From Pontiella sp. (GTDB taxonomy: Bacteria; Verrucomicrobiota; Kiritimatiellia; Kiritimatiellales; Pontiellaceae), in NCBI GenBank assembly GCA_050290185.1, contig JBNKHE010000002.1, positions 288,001 through 352,000 on the forward strand: 64,000 bases of DNA, given 5' to 3'. Position 1 is the stretch's first letter. Every line of letters begins with the position of its first letter. Of the stretch, positions 12,502 to 20,341 are shown in pieces. A program made the position numbers and the translations under genes. Below the pieces are notes generated by a model that searched no databases, had not been told where the DNA came from, and saw only the letters and a program-made list of their open reading frames with translations.

Positions 12502-13134
12502 ATGAACGAGCAAAAACAAGCCGTAGCCGACTGCATGAACCGTCTCTACCGGCAGGGGCTGACCACCACCTCCGGCGGCAACATTTCCCTGCGCCTTTCC
12601 GAAGACCTCATCCTGCTCACCCCATCCGCCACCGACAAGGGCAACATGACGGCTGACCAGATTGCCGAGATCAGCATGGACGGCACGAACTATACTTCGC
12701 ACCTCAAACCCAGCGGCGAAACCTCGATGCACCTGGAAATCTACAAGCGCCGTCCCGATGTGCAGGCCATCGTCCACGCCCATCCGCCGATGGCCAGCGT
12801 GTTTGCCGTGATCGACAAACCGCTCAATGTCCGCCTGATTGCGGAATCGTACGCCATTCTCGGCACGCCCGCCATCGCGCCCTATGCGCTGACCGGAACG
12901 CAGGAGCTGGCGGATGCCGTGGCCGCTTGCCTAACCGGAAACACCGCCTGCGTCCTGATGAAAAACCATGGAGCTCTGTGTGTTGGCGGCAGCCTCCTCG
13001 AAGCCTTCGACCGCATGGAAGTGCTGGAAAACGCCGCCAAGATCAACCTCTTCGCCGCTCAGCTTGGCGGGGTGCATGAACTGAACGACGCGCAGTGCGC
13101 CGCGCTCGACGATTGGGTTGGACGCCATGGCTGA
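12502..13134 (+). CDS. Class II aldolase/adducin family protein (FucA-like)
   Basis: SGGNIS.R, TPS, KPSGETSMHLEIY, IVHAHP, LMKNHG; ATG 12502 follows AGGGAGA. Confidence 0.9.
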   Translation: MNEQKQAVADCMNRLYRQGLTTTSGGNISLRLSEDLILLTPSATDKGNMTADQIAEISMDGTNYTSHLKPSGETSMHLEIYKRRPDVQAIVHAHPPMASVFAVIDKPLNVRLIAESYAILGTPAIAPYALTGTQELADAVAACLTGNTACVLMKNHGALCVGGSLLEAFDRMEVLENAAKINLFAAQLGGVHELNDAQCAALDDWVGRHG

Positions 13135-15502
13135 CATCGTCCTCGCCGCGTTCAACGCCCGCTATGCGCACAGCTCCTTCGGCGCGCGCTACCTGCTCGC
13201 CAACCTTGGCGAAATGCAGGAACAGTCCGAACTGTTGGAGTTCGATCTCGCCGTCCAGCCGCGCATCGCCGTAGAAAAGATCCTCGCGCACCACCCGCGC
13301 ATCGTCGGTATCGGATGCTACATCTGGAACATTGACCTCGCCACCCAAGTCGCCGCCCTGCTTAAAGCCATCCGGCCCGACATCGCCCTCGTTCTCGGCG
13401 GCCCCGAAATCAGCTACGAAACCGAGCAGCAGGAAATCTTCACCTATGCCGACCACGTCATCTGCGGCGAAGGCGAAATCGAATTCCCGAAACTGTGCTC
13501 TGCTCTTTTATGCAGGCGGAACGCCTGCAATACAACGGATGTACCGCAGGCGTCCCGCCTGCCCCGCATCATCCACGCCGAGCCGGTGGATGTATCGCAG
13601 ATCGAGATGCCGTACGAGCTCTATACCGACGAAGACATCGCCCATCGAGCCATCTATGTCGAGGCCTCGCGCGGGTGCCCGTTCCGGTGCGAATACTGCA
13701 TGTCGTCGCTCGATCCGTGCGTGCGCTATTTCCCGAAGGAGCGGTTTCTCGCCGCGATGGGAAAACTGCTCGACCGTGGGGCCCGCACGTTCAAGTTTGT
13801 CGACCGCAGCTTTAATATCGACATCCCCTTCGCGCTGGAAATCCTCGCCTTTTTCCGCGAGCGCTACACGCCGGACATGATGCTCCATTTCGAAGTCATT
13901 CCCAGCCACCTGCCGGACGAACTGATGAATGCCGTCAAGGAATGCTCGCCCGGCATGCTCCAGTTCGAGATCGGCATCCAGACCTTCAACGAAGAGGTCG
14001 CCCACCGCATCCAGCGCCCGCTCAACATCGCAAGGGTCGAAGCCAACATGCGGCGGTTGCGCGCGGAAACGGGCGTGCATATCCATGCCGACCTGATTGC
14101 CGGCTTGCCCGGCGAAGATATGGAAAGCTTTGAAGACGGCTTCAACCGGCTGCTGTCGCTCAATCCACAGGAGATCCAGCTCGGCATTTTGAAGCGCCTG
14201 CGCGGTGCGCCGATCGACCGGCATACCCGTGACTGGGACATGGTCTACAGTCCGCACGCGCCCTACGAAATCCTGCAAACCAGTCTGATCTCCTTCGAGC
14301 AGATGCAACGCATCCAGCGTTTCGCGCGCTACTGGAACCTCACCGTCAACAACGGTCAATTCATCCAAACCGCCCCGCTGATTTGGCAAACCGTACCGCA
14401 GGCGTCCCGCCTGCCCGAGGAAGCCGTACCGACAGGTGATTGCGCGCAAGCAAGCAATCTTCGCCTGCCTCCCGAAACAACCGGATTCAATCCGCACCGG
14501 GAAATTCACCAAACTCGACGCAAACACTATCCCCACTGGACGCAGGATGATTCCACCTATTTCGTGACATTCCGGCTGGCTGATTCGATACCGCAGTCCC
14601 GCATAAAGGAATACGAGGAATTGCGCCGCAAATGGGAAGAACATCATCAACCGCCCTATTCGGAACAGGAACAGATCCGGTTTAACGAGCTGTTCTCAAA
14701 CCGAATCAATGAATGGCTGGATGAAGGCGCCGGCTCCTGCTGCCTGCGTGATCCGGAAATTTCGCGGATGGTGGCCGATACGCTGCGTCACTTCGATGGC
14801 GACCGCTACGACCTGGATGAATGGGTGGTCATGCCCAACCATGTTCATCTGCTGGTACGTCCCCGGGCAGGGCATGAACTTCCGGACATCCTGCATTCTT
14901 GGAAATCGTTTTCAGCCCACGCTATAAACACTTCTCTGAAGCGAACCGGAAAACTCTGGCAGACCGAAAGCTACGACCACATCGTTCGAAACATGGAAGA
15001 ACTGCACCGGATTCGAAGCTATATCCGGAAAAACCCGGAAAAGGCCGGCATTCGTGTTTCCCATGCGGGAAGCAGGCGGGACGCCTGCGATACAGCCCCC
15101 GAGCTGCAGGACGCCCCAGCCGTACCGACAGGTGATTGCGCGCAAGCAAGCAATCTCCGCCTGCCAGAGCAAACCGTACCGCAGGCGTCCCGCCTGCCAC
15201 AGGAGTCATCCCCATTCGCGGCCTTCATGCAGTGGAGCGACTGGCTCTATGCCCAAACCAACACCACCGGTAACCTGCACATGCTGCGGCTCGCCAAATT
15301 GCTGATGCAGTTTCTGACCAAGGAAAAAGGATTGGATCCACAAGCCGTGGCCGAAGCACTCTGGAACGACTACCAGCGTGGAAACCGCCCCGATATTCCC
15401 GGCTTCCTGAAAAAGTTTGGGTTTGGACAAGGCCGGCAAGATGCCGGCGGTACCAACGAACCACAGGCGTCTCGTTTGCCTCGTCAGTCGCGGCACTTGT
15501 AA
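13127..15502 (+). CDS. B12-binding radical SAM protein (DUF4080-type) interrupted in frame by a RAYT transposase domain and REP-derived peptides
   Basis: YIWN...VLGGPEISY...GEGE (B12-binding); YVEASRGCPFRCEYC; FKFVDRSFN; HADLIAGLPGE; continuous frame through the insert. Confidence 0.9.
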   Translation: MADIVLAAFNARYAHSSFGARYLLANLGEMQEQSELLEFDLAVQPRIAVEKILAHHPRIVGIGCYIWNIDLATQVAALLKAIRPDIALVLGGPEISYETEQQEIFTYADHVICGEGEIEFPKLCSALLCRRNACNTTDVPQASRLPRIIHAEPVDVSQIEMPYELYTDEDIAHRAIYVEASRGCPFRCEYCMSSLDPCVRYFPKERFLAAMGKLLDRGARTFKFVDRSFNIDIPFALEILAFFRERYTPDMMLHFEVIPSHLPDELMNAVKECSPGMLQFEIGIQTFNEEVAHRIQRPLNIARVEANMRRLRAETGVHIHADLIAGLPGEDMESFEDGFNRLLSLNPQEIQLGILKRLRGAPIDRHTRDWDMVYSPHAPYEILQTSLISFEQMQRIQRFARYWNLTVNNGQFIQTAPLIWQTVPQASRLPEEAVPTGDCAQASNLRLPPETTGFNPHREIHQTRRKHYPHWTQDDSTYFVTFRLADSIPQSRIKEYEELRRKWEEHHQPPYSEQEQIRFNELFSNRINEWLDEGAGSCCLRDPEISRMVADTLRHFDGDRYDLDEWVVMPNHVHLLVRPRAGHELPDILHSWKSFSAHAINTSLKRTGKLWQTESYDHIVRNMEELHRIRSYIRKNPEKAGIRVSHAGSRRDACDTAPELQDAPAVPTGDCAQASNLRLPEQTVPQASRLPQESSPFAAFMQWSDWLYAQTNTTGNLHMLRLAKLLMQFLTKEKGLDPQAVAEALWNDYQRGNRPDIPGFLKKFGFGQGRQDAGGTNEPQASRLPRQSRHL
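13512..13562. repeat. Intragenic inverted REP doublet (REPIN-like)
   Basis: GCAGGCGGAACGCCTGCAATAC-AACGGAT-GTACCGCAGGCGTCCCGCCTGC; read in frame as CRRNACNTTDVPQASRL. Confidence 0.85.
14386..15198 (+). mobile_element. REP-flanked RAYT (TnpA-REP, IS200-like Y1 HUH) cassette inserted in frame
   Basis: Domain ~14480-15049: YPHW, YFVTFRLADS, WVVMPNHVHLL (HUH, 14840-14848), WKSFSA, LWQTESYDHIVRN, YIRKNP (Tyr 15020); perfect 30-bp direct repeats at 14386-14415 and 15169-15198; long REP variants at 14426-14469 and 15122-15165; inverted REP at 15072-15093. Confidence 0.9.
15431..15480. repeat. Degenerate REP doublet in the 3' end of the radical SAM gene
   Basis: GGCCGGCAAGATGCCGGCGGTAC (reverse complement GTACCGCCGGCATCTTGCCGGCC) then CCACAGGCGTCTCGTTTGCC, again encoding PQASRL. 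Confidence 0.7.
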
Positions 15503-15532
15503 TGCCCGTTCATCTCATCTAGAAAGAACATC

Positions 15533-16393
15533 ATGACCGAAGAAAACAAGAACAGCGGCGGGCAACTGAGTCTACTGGTCGCCATGCAGAACGTTGAGCC
15601 CGTGTGCGAATGGGTGCGCGAAGCGCTGTGCAAGGAACCGATCGAAATGTTGCGACCATTGGCTGATGAGGCGCAGATCGAAGTCTATTTCGACTCCCTG
15701 CTCGAAGCGCAGATTGCGCAAAAGGCCCTACCGCCGGAACTGAACATTCTCGCCGCCGAAGCCAAGGAATATCTGGAGCAGGACTGGACCACCTTCTGGC
15801 AGCACCATTTCAAGACCATGGAACTGGGCCATAACCTGCGGATCGTGCCGGAATGGGAAGAAGCGCCCGAGGATGAGCGAATCAATATCATCATCAATCC
15901 CGGCCTAAGCTTCGGTACCGGAGGGCACTTTACCACCAAATTCTGTCTGGAGGCGCTGGAGCAGGCGGTACAGGAACTGAGGCCAGAAACCATGATCGAC
16001 GCCGGCACCGGCAGCGGGATCCTTTCCATCGCCGCCATCAAACTCGGCATCCCCGACATCGTGGCATTCGACTACGACCCGGTCTGCGTGGATCAATGCA
16101 ACGAGAATGCCGAACGCAACGGTGTGGAGGGAATGATCCACTTTTTCCAGGTCGACGTGCTGGAGCCGGGATGGAACGCCAAACCGGCCGATATCGTCTG
16201 CGCTAATATCCTGACCTCGGTGCTGCTCGACGCCGCGCCGCTGATCAAGCGCGCCGCAAAGAAACGTATCCTGCTCAGCGGCATCCGGGAAATCGAAGCC
16301 GATGCCGTTGCAGAAACCTTCATCCAGCTCGGAGGTCGCGAGGTCTCGCGCGATGGTGACGGGCAATGGTGCGGGCTGGTGATCGATGTCTAA
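15533..16393 (+). CDS. prmA: Ribosomal protein L11 methyltransferase
   Basis: DW..FW..HF, IVPEWE, INPGLSFGTGGHFTT, DAGTGSGILSIAA, ANIL, LSGI. Confidence 0.9.
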   Translation: MTEENKNSGGQLSLLVAMQNVEPVCEWVREALCKEPIEMLRPLADEAQIEVYFDSLLEAQIAQKALPPELNILAAEAKEYLEQDWTTFWQHHFKTMELGHNLRIVPEWEEAPEDERINIIINPGLSFGTGGHFTTKFCLEALEQAVQELRPETMIDAGTGSGILSIAAIKLGIPDIVAFDYDPVCVDQCNENAERNGVEGMIHFFQVDVLEPGWNAKPADIVCANILTSVLLDAAPLIKRAAKKRILLSGIREIEADAVAETFIQLGGREVSRDGDGQWCGLVIDV

Positions 16394-17521: not shown

Positions 17522-18454
17522 ATGAGTGGGCAACATCAGGGAAGCGGACCTCCGCGCGCGGACTATCGGCATGCATATCCGGTTTTTGTGATCGTCATTA
17601 TCCTGGCGATAGCAGGTCTGGCCGTACGGGCGCATCTTGTTCCGAACACGTTTGGCGAGACCGGATTCTACCGTGGTGGTGATATCACCGATGAACAGCA
17701 GCGCCAACCCCGCTATGCCGGGCAGGCCGCCTGCGAAGAATGCCATGACGATGTGACGGCCATACATGCCAAGGATGTGCACGCTTCCGTTCAATGCGAG
17801 ACCTGCCACGGTCCGGGTACAGCCCACATTGAAGATCTGGATAATACAATGTTTCCAGCCAACCGGAAAGAAGACTGCCTGGTATGCCACCGCCAGCTGG
17901 ACGCCCGGCCGGGCTCATTTCCGCAAGTGGTCTGGACCGAGCACTTCAAGTTTGTCGGTGTCACGGACACCAACATTGCCTGCGTACGCTGCCACTCTGG
18001 CCACGAACCGCTCTTCACGGACCATGATCTCCGCCAGGCACGCCTCCATCCGCTCATTCAGGACTGTGCCGACTGTCATATTGGCCTGACGGATGAACAG
18101 CTCAAGCAACCGGCCGATCATCCGCGAATCTTCCATTGCGCGGACTGCCATCCCACGATTTATGCTTCGTTCATGAAGGACGAACATCGCAGCATCTCCT
18201 GCACCACATGCCATCTCTTCATCAAGGAGAACAACTTCTCCGGACGGATTGTCCGCAACGCCGATCCGCGTTTCTGCCTGCTCTGCCATCGCAAGACCGA
18301 TTTCAAAGTCGAATCAGGCACGCCCAAGATCGACTGGCCGGACCATCTCGGAGAGGTATCGGACGATCCGCCCGACCCGAAGCGGTCCTGCGTGGACTGC
18401 CACATGTTCAACATCCACGACCTCTATCCCAAGGAGAACTCCCATGCCATGTAA
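17522..18454 (+). CDS. Membrane-anchored multiheme cytochrome c (9 CxxCH)
   Basis: CEECH, CETCH, CLVCH, CVRCH, CADCH x2, CTTCH, CLLCH, CVDCH; N-terminal hydrophobic helix. Confidence 0.9.
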   Translation: MSGQHQGSGPPRADYRHAYPVFVIVIILAIAGLAVRAHLVPNTFGETGFYRGGDITDEQQRQPRYAGQAACEECHDDVTAIHAKDVHASVQCETCHGPGTAHIEDLDNTMFPANRKEDCLVCHRQLDARPGSFPQVVWTEHFKFVGVTDTNIACVRCHSGHEPLFTDHDLRQARLHPLIQDCADCHIGLTDEQLKQPADHPRIFHCADCHPTIYASFMKDEHRSISCTTCHLFIKENNFSGRIVRNADPRFCLLCHRKTDFKVESGTPKIDWPDHLGEVSDDPPDPKRSCVDCHMFNIHDLYPKENSHAM

Positions 18455-19190
18455 CTGCAACTTGAACCGACGGAATCTGCTCCGGCGGACGGCGACCAGC
18501 GCCGGGGGACTGTTCATCCTGTGGACGCTCCCCGCTCTGGCATCCTTTAAGACCAACAAGAACAGGAAGGGCCCCTACTACGCCTATGCGGTAGATACCT
18601 CCCGTTGCATCGGCTGCTGCGCATGCATGCGCGCGTGTCGCGCGGAAAACGATGTGCCCGACAGCTACTTCCGGACCTGGGTCGAACGCTATCGTGTTCG
18701 TGCGAACGGCGAGGTCGAAGTCGATGTGGCCACGAAGGATGATTTTATCTTCAAGGAAGCAGAAAAGGAACATGTGGCTAAAGCCTTCTTCGTGCCCAAG
18801 CTATGCAACCACTGCGAACAGTCGGTCTGCGTCCAGGTCTGCCCCGTTGGAGCCACGTACAACACGCCGGACGGGGTGGTGCTGGTGGACCACAAACGAT
18901 GCATCGGGTGCGGATATTGCGTACAGGCCTGCCCGTACGGTTCCCGCTTCATCAACCCGGAAATCCACATGGCGGATAAATGCACCCTCTGCTACCACCG
19001 TATCAAGCGGGACTTGAAACCAGCCTGCGTGCAGGCCTGCCCCAAGCAGGCCCGCATCTTCGGAGACCTGAACAATCCGGACGACCCGCTCAGCATCATG
19101 CTTAAGCAACGCCGGTTTCGCCTATTGAAGCCGGAGATGGGCACCCATCCCAAATGCTACTATCTGGAACTCGACTTCGAGGTCGTATAA
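18444..19190 (+). CDS. Tat-exported 4Fe-4S protein (NrfC/DsrO/PsrB family)
   Basis: NRRNLL Tat-like motif; CIGCCACMRAC, CNHC..SVCVQVCP, CIGCGYCVQACP, KCTLC...PACVQACP. Confidence 0.92.
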   Translation: MPCNCNLNRRNLLRRTATSAGGLFILWTLPALASFKTNKNRKGPYYAYAVDTSRCIGCCACMRACRAENDVPDSYFRTWVERYRVRANGEVEVDVATKDDFIFKEAEKEHVAKAFFVPKLCNHCEQSVCVQVCPVGATYNTPDGVVLVDHKRCIGCGYCVQACPYGSRFINPEIHMADKCTLCYHRIKRDLKPACVQACPKQARIFGDLNNPDDPLSIMLKQRRFRLLKPEMGTHPKCYYLELDFEVV

Positions 19191-20341
19191 TGAATTTTGT
19201 GTTCCCCAACGAACTGCATGTCACCTGGTCGGTGATGATTGTCCTCTACCCCTATATCACGGGCTTGGTTGCGGGGGCGTTTATTGTCTCGTCCCTCTAC
19301 CATGTTTTCGGCAAAAGCGAACTGCGGCCGGTGGCCCGTTTTTCGCTCGCATCAGCCTTCGTCTTTTTGCTGTTCGCGCCGCTCCCGTTGCTGATCCATC
19401 TCGGCCAGCCGGAGCGCGCCTTCAACATCATGATCACACCGCACTTTACCTCCGCCATGGCGGGCTTCGGCTATATTTACACCCTATATCTCATTCTGGT
19501 CATGCTCGAGATATGGTTCGTGATGCGATCGGATTTTATCGCCCGCGCCCAAGGGCACGGCCCCATTGCCTGGCTCTGCCGCTGCATCGTCCTGTTCAAC
19601 TACCGAGAAACCACTGCCACCCGGTTGGCCGACCACCATATTTCCCGCTTCCTGGCGGCCGTCGGCATTCCACTGGCCTGCGTGCTGCATGGCTATGCGG
19701 GCTTCCTCTTCGGCTCACTCAAAGCGAATCCATGGTGGTCCACACCGCTCATGTTCGTGATCTTTATCTTTTCAGCGATTGTGTCCGGCATTTCGGTATT
19801 GATCTTCCACTATTTTGTGGTTTCGAAAGTCAACCGCTGGAAAGTAGATGCGCCCTGCGTGCAATGCATGGCACGGTATCTTTGGGGATTCATGATTATC
19901 GCCGTTTCGCTGGAGATGATGGAACTGCTCTCCATCGTCTACGAGCAGACCGACAAAACCGAAGTACTAGGCGAACTGATTCGCGACAAACTGTTCATCT
20001 CCTACGTAGTTCTGCAGTTCTTGGTCTTCTCGCTTGTGCCGTTTTTCATGCTTGCCGCAAACGCCCTGCTGAAGCTGCGCCAGCGAACCTCGCATCTGCT
20101 GATTTGGCTTTCATCGGTCATGCTGCTCGTACAGGTGTTGCTGATGCGCTGGAACGTCGTGATCGGCGGGCAACTCATTTCCAAATCGATGCGCGGCTTC
20201 ACCAGCTACTTCCCCGGCATCTGGGATCGCGAAGGCCTCATCGCCGCGTTCGTTCTGCTCACCCTGCCCTTCCTGATCCTCTACGTCTTCCACCGCGTGG
20301 TGTCGCTCTTCCCCGATGCTGAAATAGCGAAGAAGGATTGA
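19190..20341 (+). CDS. NrfD/PsrC-family integral membrane quinol-interacting subunit
   Basis: W...IVLYPYITGLVAGAF, HLGQPERA, SAM, HGYAGFLFG...NPWW, RWNVVIGGQ; ~10 TM helices; start overlaps the upstream stop. Confidence 0.9.
   Translation: MNFVFPNELHVTWSVMIVLYPYITGLVAGAFIVSSLYHVFGKSELRPVARFSLASAFVFLLFAPLPLLIHLGQPERAFNIMITPHFTSAMAGFGYIYTLYLILVMLEIWFVMRSDFIARAQGHGPIAWLCRCIVLFNYRETTATRLADHHISRFLAAVGIPLACVLHGYAGFLFGSLKANPWWSTPLMFVIFIFSAIVSGISVLIFHYFVVSKVNRWKVDAPCVQCMARYLWGFMIIAVSLEMMELLSIVYEQTDKTEVLGELIRDKLFISYVVLQFLVFSLVPFFMLAANALLKLRQRTSHLLIWLSSVMLLVQVLLMRWNVVIGGQLISKSMRGFTSYFPGIWDREGLIAAFVLLTLPFLILYVFHRVVSLFPDAEIAKKD

Follow-up and report, generated by a model that had tools for sequence, protein, structure and literature searches.

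An in-frame REPtron, probably mobile, inside a B12-binding radical SAM gene of Pontiella sp.

RAYTs, the tyrosine transposases associated with repetitive extragenic palindromes (REPs), are textbook domesticated transposases that do not move themselves. In the window, by which we mean the whole stretch of 64,000 nucleotides analysed here (Pontiella sp., assembly GCA_050290185.1, contig JBNKHE010000002.1, positions 288,001 to 352,000), a RAYT bracketed by REPs lies in frame within a gene for a B12-binding radical SAM / DUF4080 protein, and it is very likely a mobile, translated passenger of that host. In the accessible parts of earlier accounts, RAYTs are extragenic and vertical (Bertels 2017, PMC5581495; Bertels and Rainey, bioRxiv 10.1101/2021.07.10.451892), and the biochemistry of the E. 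coli enzyme, TnpA-REP, is covered by Messing 2012 (PMC3479197) and Corneloup 2021 (PMC8266576). The available portion of one survey reports REPs in frame inside tnpA-REP genes and the discarding of unexpectedly long proteins as fusions or annotation errors (Quentin 2018, PMC6006769), and that of another describes intragenic REPs as abundant in Verrucomicrobia, with most in Opitutus terrae (Di Nocera 2013, PMC3733652). The literature searched, from which subscription papers were mostly absent, yielded no description of a complete RAYT gene lying in frame within a host gene. The locus is laid out as follows.

13127..15502, + strand: host gene, B12-binding radical SAM / DUF4080 with internal RAYT, 791 aa
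13151..13492, + strand: B12-binding domain, aa 9-122 (Pfam PF02310)
13512..13562, no strand assigned: site A in the B12/SAM linker, an in-frame inverted pair of REPs only (reverse REP 13512-13533, forward REP 13541-13562)
13661..14137, + strand: Radical SAM domain, aa 179-337 (Pfam), CxxxCxxC intact at 13676-13699
14231..14389, + strand: DUF4080, portion preceding the insert, aa 369-423 (PF13311)
14386..14415, + strand: left outer 30-bp direct repeat, including forward REP 14393-14414 with GTAC foot and 7-bp perfect stem
14390..15199, + strand: whole in-frame insert at site B, 810 nt, 270 codons against an ancestral 14-residue loop
14422..14469, + strand: left inner 48-nt repeat, a REP variant with extended stem
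14480..15049, + strand: RAYT / TnpA-REP domain, aa 452-641, without start or stop of its own; YFVTFR at 14558, HUH at 14840-14848, WQ..DH..R at 14957-14989, catalytic Tyr632 at 15020
15072..15093, - strand: reverse REP at the cassette end, GTAT foot
15118..15165, + strand: inner 48-nt repeat, right-hand copy at a spacing of 696 bp
15169..15198, + strand: outer 30-bp direct repeat, right-hand copy at a spacing of 783 bp
15200..15431, + strand: DUF4080, portion following the insert, aligning to orthologues directly past their site B
15432..15481, no strand assigned: site C in the C-terminal tail, in frame (reverse REP variant 15432-15453 and a decayed forward copy)

Compared with a REPtron, taking E. 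coli TnpA-REP (4ER8) as the reference, this element has in common the HUH and Tyr core, the WQ..(E/D)H..R stretch, hairpins on either side, each with a tetranucleotide foot, REPs in inverted pairs and dispersed cognate REPs, but it is situated inside a gene, in frame and without start or stop, and its RAYT has about 60 extra residues after YFVTFR. Every copy read has GTAC or GTAT as its foot, whereas the canonical foot is given as GT[AG]G (PMC6006769, in the part available), and there is evidence of horizontal transfer and relocation where canonical RAYTs are described, in the accessible text, as extragenic, non-jumping and vertical. The element fails two defining features of a REPtron, the extragenic vertical gene and the GT[AG]G foot. 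Its REP-only alleles resemble intragenic REPs and the Rickettsia palindromic elements, which are in-frame palindromes in tolerant loops, sometimes twice per open reading frame (ORF); as far as the available part of that account goes, however, those are non-autonomous inserts of 20-80 residues, and here the transposase gene itself is inserted (PMC3733652). Inteins with homing endonucleases, as generally understood, are likewise in frame, free of start and stop, patchy in distribution and transferred site-faithfully with co-conversion of flanks. Unlike them, the present element has no Hint domain or splicing residues, its nuclease is a single-strand HUH enzyme, it occupies variable loops and linkers rather than conserved active-site motifs, and it presumably stays in the mature protein. 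With IS200/IS605 it shares a Y1 HUH transposase and subterminal hairpins; it differs in its weak IS200 score, the lack of tnpB and of multicopy identical elements, and its constant position in frame in a host. By analogy, a REPtron would here behave as a homing element that does not splice. Two features are new: one gene is occupied at three sites, and a tract of transfer extends into the host flank.

Site B measures 284 aa in the host gene and 14 aa in empty orthologues, so the insert comprises 270 codons and not the 261 or 232 of the repeat spacings. Its elements run in the order forward REP, long REP variant, RAYT, reverse REP, long variant, forward REP, each REP consisting of a GTAC or GTAT foot, one base and a perfect 7-bp stem. 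An earlier reading of the window from its letters alone (the sequence-only reading) had described a perfect 30-bp repeat spaced 783 bp, which proved exact at 14386-14415 and 15169-15198 with no extension on either side, and an inner 44-bp repeat, for which the spacing of 696 bp was right and the length was not (48 nt with one mismatch, 44 nt being the REP part). Deletion between either pair would, as it had said, keep the frame, giving products of 530 aa (783 bp) and 559 aa (696 bp). Exact 30-mer repeats 300-1500 bp apart recur in the genome, in 66 stretches; the peculiarity of the outer pair is that REPs bracket a RAYT, not the length or spacing of the repeat. Many empty site-B alleles read WQDA at the place that corresponds to 14381-14398, and the DNA there is similar to a segment of a reverse REP variant (peptide RQDA), either as a natural target or by chance.

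An intact HUH Y1 domain at 14480-15049 is confirmed by the Pfam match to Y1_Tnp, by HVH at 572-574 and Tyr632, and by alignment to 4ER8, the best match of the insert in the PDB both by sequence and by Foldseek. Of the residues of the foot-binding stretch of 4ER8, W, Q, H and R are kept and E100 is D, as in subclasses 2.5 and 2.7 in the accessible part of the Quentin classification (PMC6006769). The domain scores 79.1 bits with NCBIfam REP_Tyr_transpos (NF047646, cut-off 80) and 24.8 bits with the IS200 model (cut-off 55). HUH and Tyr are 60 residues apart, and most TnpA-Y1 subclasses are given a spacing of 58-67 in the available text of the same survey, where subclass 2.4 is long and variable, with a median of 88 and REP inserts; subclass 2.4 was rejected for the window RAYT on this spacing. 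The Pfam profiles named by the sequence-only reading (Y1_Tnp, Radical_SAM, DUF4080) all match within one ORF, with B12-binding at 9-122, Radical_SAM at 179-337, DUF4080 at 369-423 and Y1_Tnp at 560-635. No Hint splicing family was found in this Pfam scan of the host ORF and the insert ends in REP peptides, so an intein was rejected. An AlphaFold model (55-row alignment, mean pLDDT 78, pTM 0.67) predicts that host and RAYT are both folded; the REP-encoded stretches 138-143, 425-471, 651-691 and 771-784 have pLDDT below 50, and the DUF4080 portion after the insert (15200..15431) is modelled as helical at pLDDT 76-97. A further RAYT-like gene, short, free-standing and about 30% identical, lies elsewhere in the genome (G000:C2:67540-68031, outside the window), between flanking direct repeats of its own.

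The host belongs to the B12-binding radical SAM (DUF4080) family, YgiQ-like in JGI naming, with which it shares domain order and CxxxCxxC, all three domains and the motif being present. Its fold is similar to those of CysS and TokK (Foldseek matches at E about 1e-19). It differs from an ordinary B12-binding radical SAM protein in having REP or RAYT inserts in three loops. The closest proteins carry source names from Pontiellaceae and Kiritimatiellales. The host gene was found in 68 of the 89 genomes of the order, and loci from 64 genomes were compared. RAYTs of this clade occupy the host gene in 22 of these. Thirteen genomes have site A filled, 8 have site B filled, and one (G015) apparently has both, although this double occupancy is uncertain, as two contigs overlap at only about 80% identity; 39 genomes have a RAYT-free host gene, and three loci in which no RAYT was seen are incomplete. 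P0024 and P0035 have a RAYT in the C-terminal tail (site C). Site-B alleles were counted in the 56 genomes that a script could anchor (four more could not be anchored). Among the 30 anchored in family 1, the site is filled in 7, REP-only in 7, decayed-REP in 2 and of ancestral length in 14, and it has its ancestral 14 residues in family 3 (25/25) and family 2 (1/1); the empty alleles for which the sequence-only reading had called thus exist, with the 14-residue loop. Each genome has its own layout and spacing of repeats and roughly one copy of the RAYT clade, and G050 and G042 have REPs without a RAYT match at E 1e-20. The REP-only alleles of other species would fit in-frame loss on an evolutionary time scale.

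Several observations on these sites stand on their own. At site A, the RAYT-free alleles L004, L005, L006, L007, L010, L012, L034, L062, L064, L065, L067 and L069 contain a second, unrelated family of in-frame palindromic inserts (with peptides such as HEGTKDTK...PSCSSSLRG, HRDTEA...SVSPSLRG and QRRKDAK...FAPLR); these may be akin to repeats linked to GxxExxY proteins. At site B of L043 (G069), the RAYT lies between exact direct copies of an entire inverted REP pair of about 55 nt, the layout expected from a circle integrating into a REP pair. In L081 (G055:C137:932-5031), a RAYT of the clade at site A of the radical SAM gene is separated by 3 kb from another at the C-terminus of the adjoining Fic gene, which suggests local hopping.

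REPs are not confined to the host gene. Cognate copies are dispersed in relatives, with 53 in G069 and 68 in G007 against none for a reversed-pattern control. A REP can be read as open in six frames, and the Pfam-supported ORFs of G069 and G007 contain REP-only copies in several frames (40 loci, crude ORF choice), so limitation of REP insertion to one reading frame was rejected; a script placed 49 REP sites of these two genomes as extragenic. Also in G069, a DNA polymerase A-family ORF contains four in-frame REPs and an adjoining DUF5906 ORF one (L224, G069:C1:1724800-1733700), and an FtsX-family permease contains five (L232, G069:C2:1355000-1358400).

The substitution pattern indicates that the RAYT domain, like the host part, is under purifying selection. 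Among family-1 pairs (18 loci), pS is 0.78 and pN 0.17 for the RAYT, against 0.61 and 0.12 for the SAM domain, and all 50 hosted copies retain intact HUH and Tyr motifs. In agreement with the sequence-only reading, no ATG, GTG or TTG lies in frame between the left repeat and YFVTFR, where only CTG and ATT codons are present. These three starts are absent from the 45 codons before YF[VI]TF in 19 of 24 cassettes, and the other five have GTG or TTG at unconserved positions. No promoter-like site was found in 14200-15300. Free-standing members of the RAYT group exist, and these relatives start with Met just ahead of the FNP motif, where the fusion has REP. Selection on a RAYT that has no start codon argues for translation through the host, and from sequence and predicted structure we infer that the RAYT is made as a passenger domain within one host chain. 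Activity as a tethered domain is plausible since E. coli TnpA-REP is a monomer, according to the part of the report available (PMC3479197).

The cassette appears to move between loops of the host gene, between genes and between species, a point that the sequence-only reading had missed. In the RAYT tree, the site A, B, C and Fic copies of family 1 are intermixed, and HypF copies fall among the family-3 site-A copies. The approximately unbiased (AU) test rejects one clade of all RAYTs hosted by the radical SAM gene (p-AU 0.006) and one clade of all site-A RAYTs (p-AU 0.001), and the trees support relocation among sites A, B, C, Fic and HypF. Filled and empty alleles are interspersed on the host tree (93 rows): the label 'no RAYT' requires 29 changes, of which well-supported branches force 11 or more, and 126 of 500 shuffles were as low. 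Over 1225 pairs, RAYT and host identities are 73 and 74% against 80 and 76% within families and 66% against 51% between families. A recent cross-species transfer is seen in L002 and P0007, whose RAYTs are 97.9% and hosts 80.7% identical; the near-identical tract starts about 14 residues ahead of the REPs and stops just past them, and P0122, another contig, repeats the pattern. This is the one clear case of homing-like, site-faithful transfer with flank co-conversion, P0021/P0029 being less clear. In each of 18 loci, G and C make up a lower proportion of third codon positions in the RAYT than in the SAM domain; for the window gene the values are 0.60 and 0.81.

RAYTs are also fused to unrelated genes, as the sequence-only reading had thought worth looking for. 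Stop-free frames of at least 400 aa contain 88 of the 96 matches within the order (E 1e-40 or better), against 18 of 58 beyond it (301 genomes drawn, 55 matched). Among the 31 ORFs scanned of about 70, Pfam names as hosts XseA, PriA, CCA-adding enzyme, HypF, Fic, TatD (C-terminal), mevalonate-diphosphate decarboxylase-like, Methyltransf_9, Mur ligase and HsdR, each host group with its own REP peptide. In a protein search, 1051 of 1216 candidates were longer proteins, with MetH, AlaRS, ValRS, IspG and DNA methylases as further hosts among the 120 matches listed. A metagenome scan gave only four close loci and, in a crude count of 80 frames, 46 long, 17 free-standing and 17 unassigned. One xseA site carries different RAYT lineages and REPs (L055, L058 and L084 against L060, L085 and L093), as does one priA site (L090, L106, L137), which suggests replacement of one cassette by another. 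Separately, the MetH, AlaRS, IspG and DUF1156 proteins P0019, P0023, P0030, P0032, P0037, P0049, P0059 and P0063 have two RAYT-matching stretches each, that is, either two RAYT domains per chain or overlapping alignments.

We consider it probable that the locus is a mobile in-frame REPtron, translated as a passenger, spread in a homing-like manner and lost by in-frame deletion. Several points weigh against this account. The AU test does not reject a single clade at site B (0.39), at site A of family 1 (0.29) or at site A of family 3 (0.75), nor does it reject a sister relationship between the RAYTs of L002 and P0028, which are sisters on the host side (p-AU 0.47); because one origin per site is left unrejected, repeated hopping inside a family is not proven by the trees. 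RAYT and host identities still correlate within families (r 0.42 and 0.62), only two clear recent-transfer pairs occur among the 1225, and the tract of the second, P0021/P0029, is broader and takes in the B12 domain, as ordinary recombination would. The window's genome has 8 copies of the REP core (at most one mismatch), 5 of them inside the host gene. A RAYT query supplied 32 of the host-tree rows; 12 duplicates had been removed, G009 was mislabelled empty and three rows are truncated. The 50 intact RAYTs were gathered by RAYT query, which favours intact copies; the RAYT in HypF of G040 has an in-frame stop, the site-B copy of G015 appears decayed, and dS is close to saturation.

The main rival, which we regard as unlikely, is a domesticated passenger without self-directed spread, which would do a job useful to the host, such as REP maintenance, with the host gene as its expression vehicle and with swaps by ordinary homologous recombination through conserved flanks and REPs. 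Purifying selection, the average of roughly one clade copy per genome, the B12-covering tract of P0021/P0029, the unrejected single origin per site and the description of canonical RAYTs as non-jumping and vertical (bioRxiv 10.1101/2021.07.10.451892, in the part available) are all in keeping with it. However, the host gene lacks a RAYT in 39 of the 64 genomes, G050 and G042 keep their REPs without one, new loops and genes require more than flank homology, and the L002/P0007 tract is tightly centred on the cassette. Release of the RAYT from the host product, whether by a rare-codon internal start, linker proteolysis or removal at the RNA level, so that the enzyme would work passenger-free, is much less probable still. 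The CTG and ATT codons upstream of YFVTFR would allow the first of these, and long linkers predicted to be disordered could be accessible to proteases; on the other hand, no start is conserved across the 24 cassettes, the region lacks a recognisable promoter-like site and a Hint domain, a product of an internal start would still carry the host C-terminus, there being no stop codon, and the Met of free-standing relatives falls where the fusion has its REP.

The two remaining explanations turn on the junctions, which were followed in contigs of public runs that possibly include the window's own source. An assembly artefact or a single ancient fixed domain fusion, either of which the sequence-only reading had named as fatal to its proposal, is hardly credible. 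The window's genome is in 163 contigs and no contig among the public runs covers the entire insert, but an X1 contig crosses the left repeat (14252-14451) and an X4 contig the right repeats (14483-15800) with no differences, 8 other genomes, one of them assembled in 5 contigs, have the RAYT-filled architecture here, and most orthologues are empty, with RAYTs at three sites. The sequence-only reading had itself been right about a frame-preserving intragenic passenger, given the lack of start, stop and promoter-like site, purifying selection, empty orthologues and similar fusions in unrelated housekeeping genes. Its further proposal, a switch in which excision between direct repeats in living populations yields two enzyme isoforms, is very improbable. 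Both deletions are in frame, and the 7 REP-only and 2 decayed-REP site-B alleles of family 1 resemble deletion products. Yet the only joint across the insert in four runs, seen in contigs of X1 and X2 that connect 14389 to 15209 via 9 or 10 other letters, has the ancestral loop length without REP and differs in three codons; it is not the 783- or 696-bp product, and as a live excision product it was rejected. An X5 contig ending in the empty joint has 14 differences from the window in 195 letters; the joint is therefore a relative's allele, REP-free and co-occurring with the window's allele in metagenomes. The 783- and 696-bp deletion joints are not listed in the four runs, which is uninformative, since contigs drop rare variants and deletion between exact 30- or 39-nt repeats yields few or no new 31-letter words. 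Repeat layouts that vary from genome to genome, and a cassette that occupies other sites and genes, leave no conserved isoform pair. No RNA run containing the window sequence is listed.

The mobile in-frame REPtron could then operate as follows. The unit, a forward REP, the RAYT and a reverse REP, often with extra REPs as direct repeats and without start or stop, would be expressed within the transcript and polypeptide of its host, as an internal domain, as selection and the predicted model suggest. Disordered peptides encoded by the REPs would hang the RAYT from a tolerant loop, so that both folds could form and splicing would be unneeded. The tethered monomeric HUH domain may, as E. coli TnpA-REP does, nick and rejoin single-stranded DNA at its REPs, which would seed REP-only copies across the genome and in gene loops. 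After DNA transfer between relatives, the cassette would be copied into the same site of the recipient with some flanking host sequence; more rarely it would jump to another REP-marked loop or gene, a pattern that is observed and in which the nuclease may take part. Given REP-only copies in several frames of other genes, the frame would be maintained by selection and in-register exchange between REPs rather than by the REP itself. Deletion between direct REP copies would remove the cassette and leave REP-only alleles. It is possible, though here our confidence falls a little short of an even balance, that such elements are HUH-driven non-splicing homing elements, a third lifestyle beside introns and inteins, in which hairpin ends encode the linkers that make the element harmless, REP-only copies mark loops before the cassette follows, and each lineage has its own REP and preferred host gene.

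The gene lies between two neighbours, its ATG overlapping the stop codon of the first.

12502..13134, + strand: class II aldolase/adducin-family gene, upstream neighbour (PF00596)
15533..16393, + strand: prmA, downstream neighbour (PF06325)

Farther along, at 17522-20341, motifs in the ORF list suggest a multiheme cytochrome c (several CxxCH), an iron-sulfur protein and an NrfD-like membrane subunit in a row.

In summary, a RAYT lineage appears to have moved between loops, genes and species while resident in proteins. The inserts explain a class of long 'fusion' proteins which, in the accessible parts of the surveys, were set aside, and they map enzyme loops that tolerate a domain of 250 residues. 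The natural series of empty, REP-only and filled alleles of one gene makes the question of RAYT self-mobilisation testable, and if the nuclease does drive the spread, this would be a homing element with no need for splicing.

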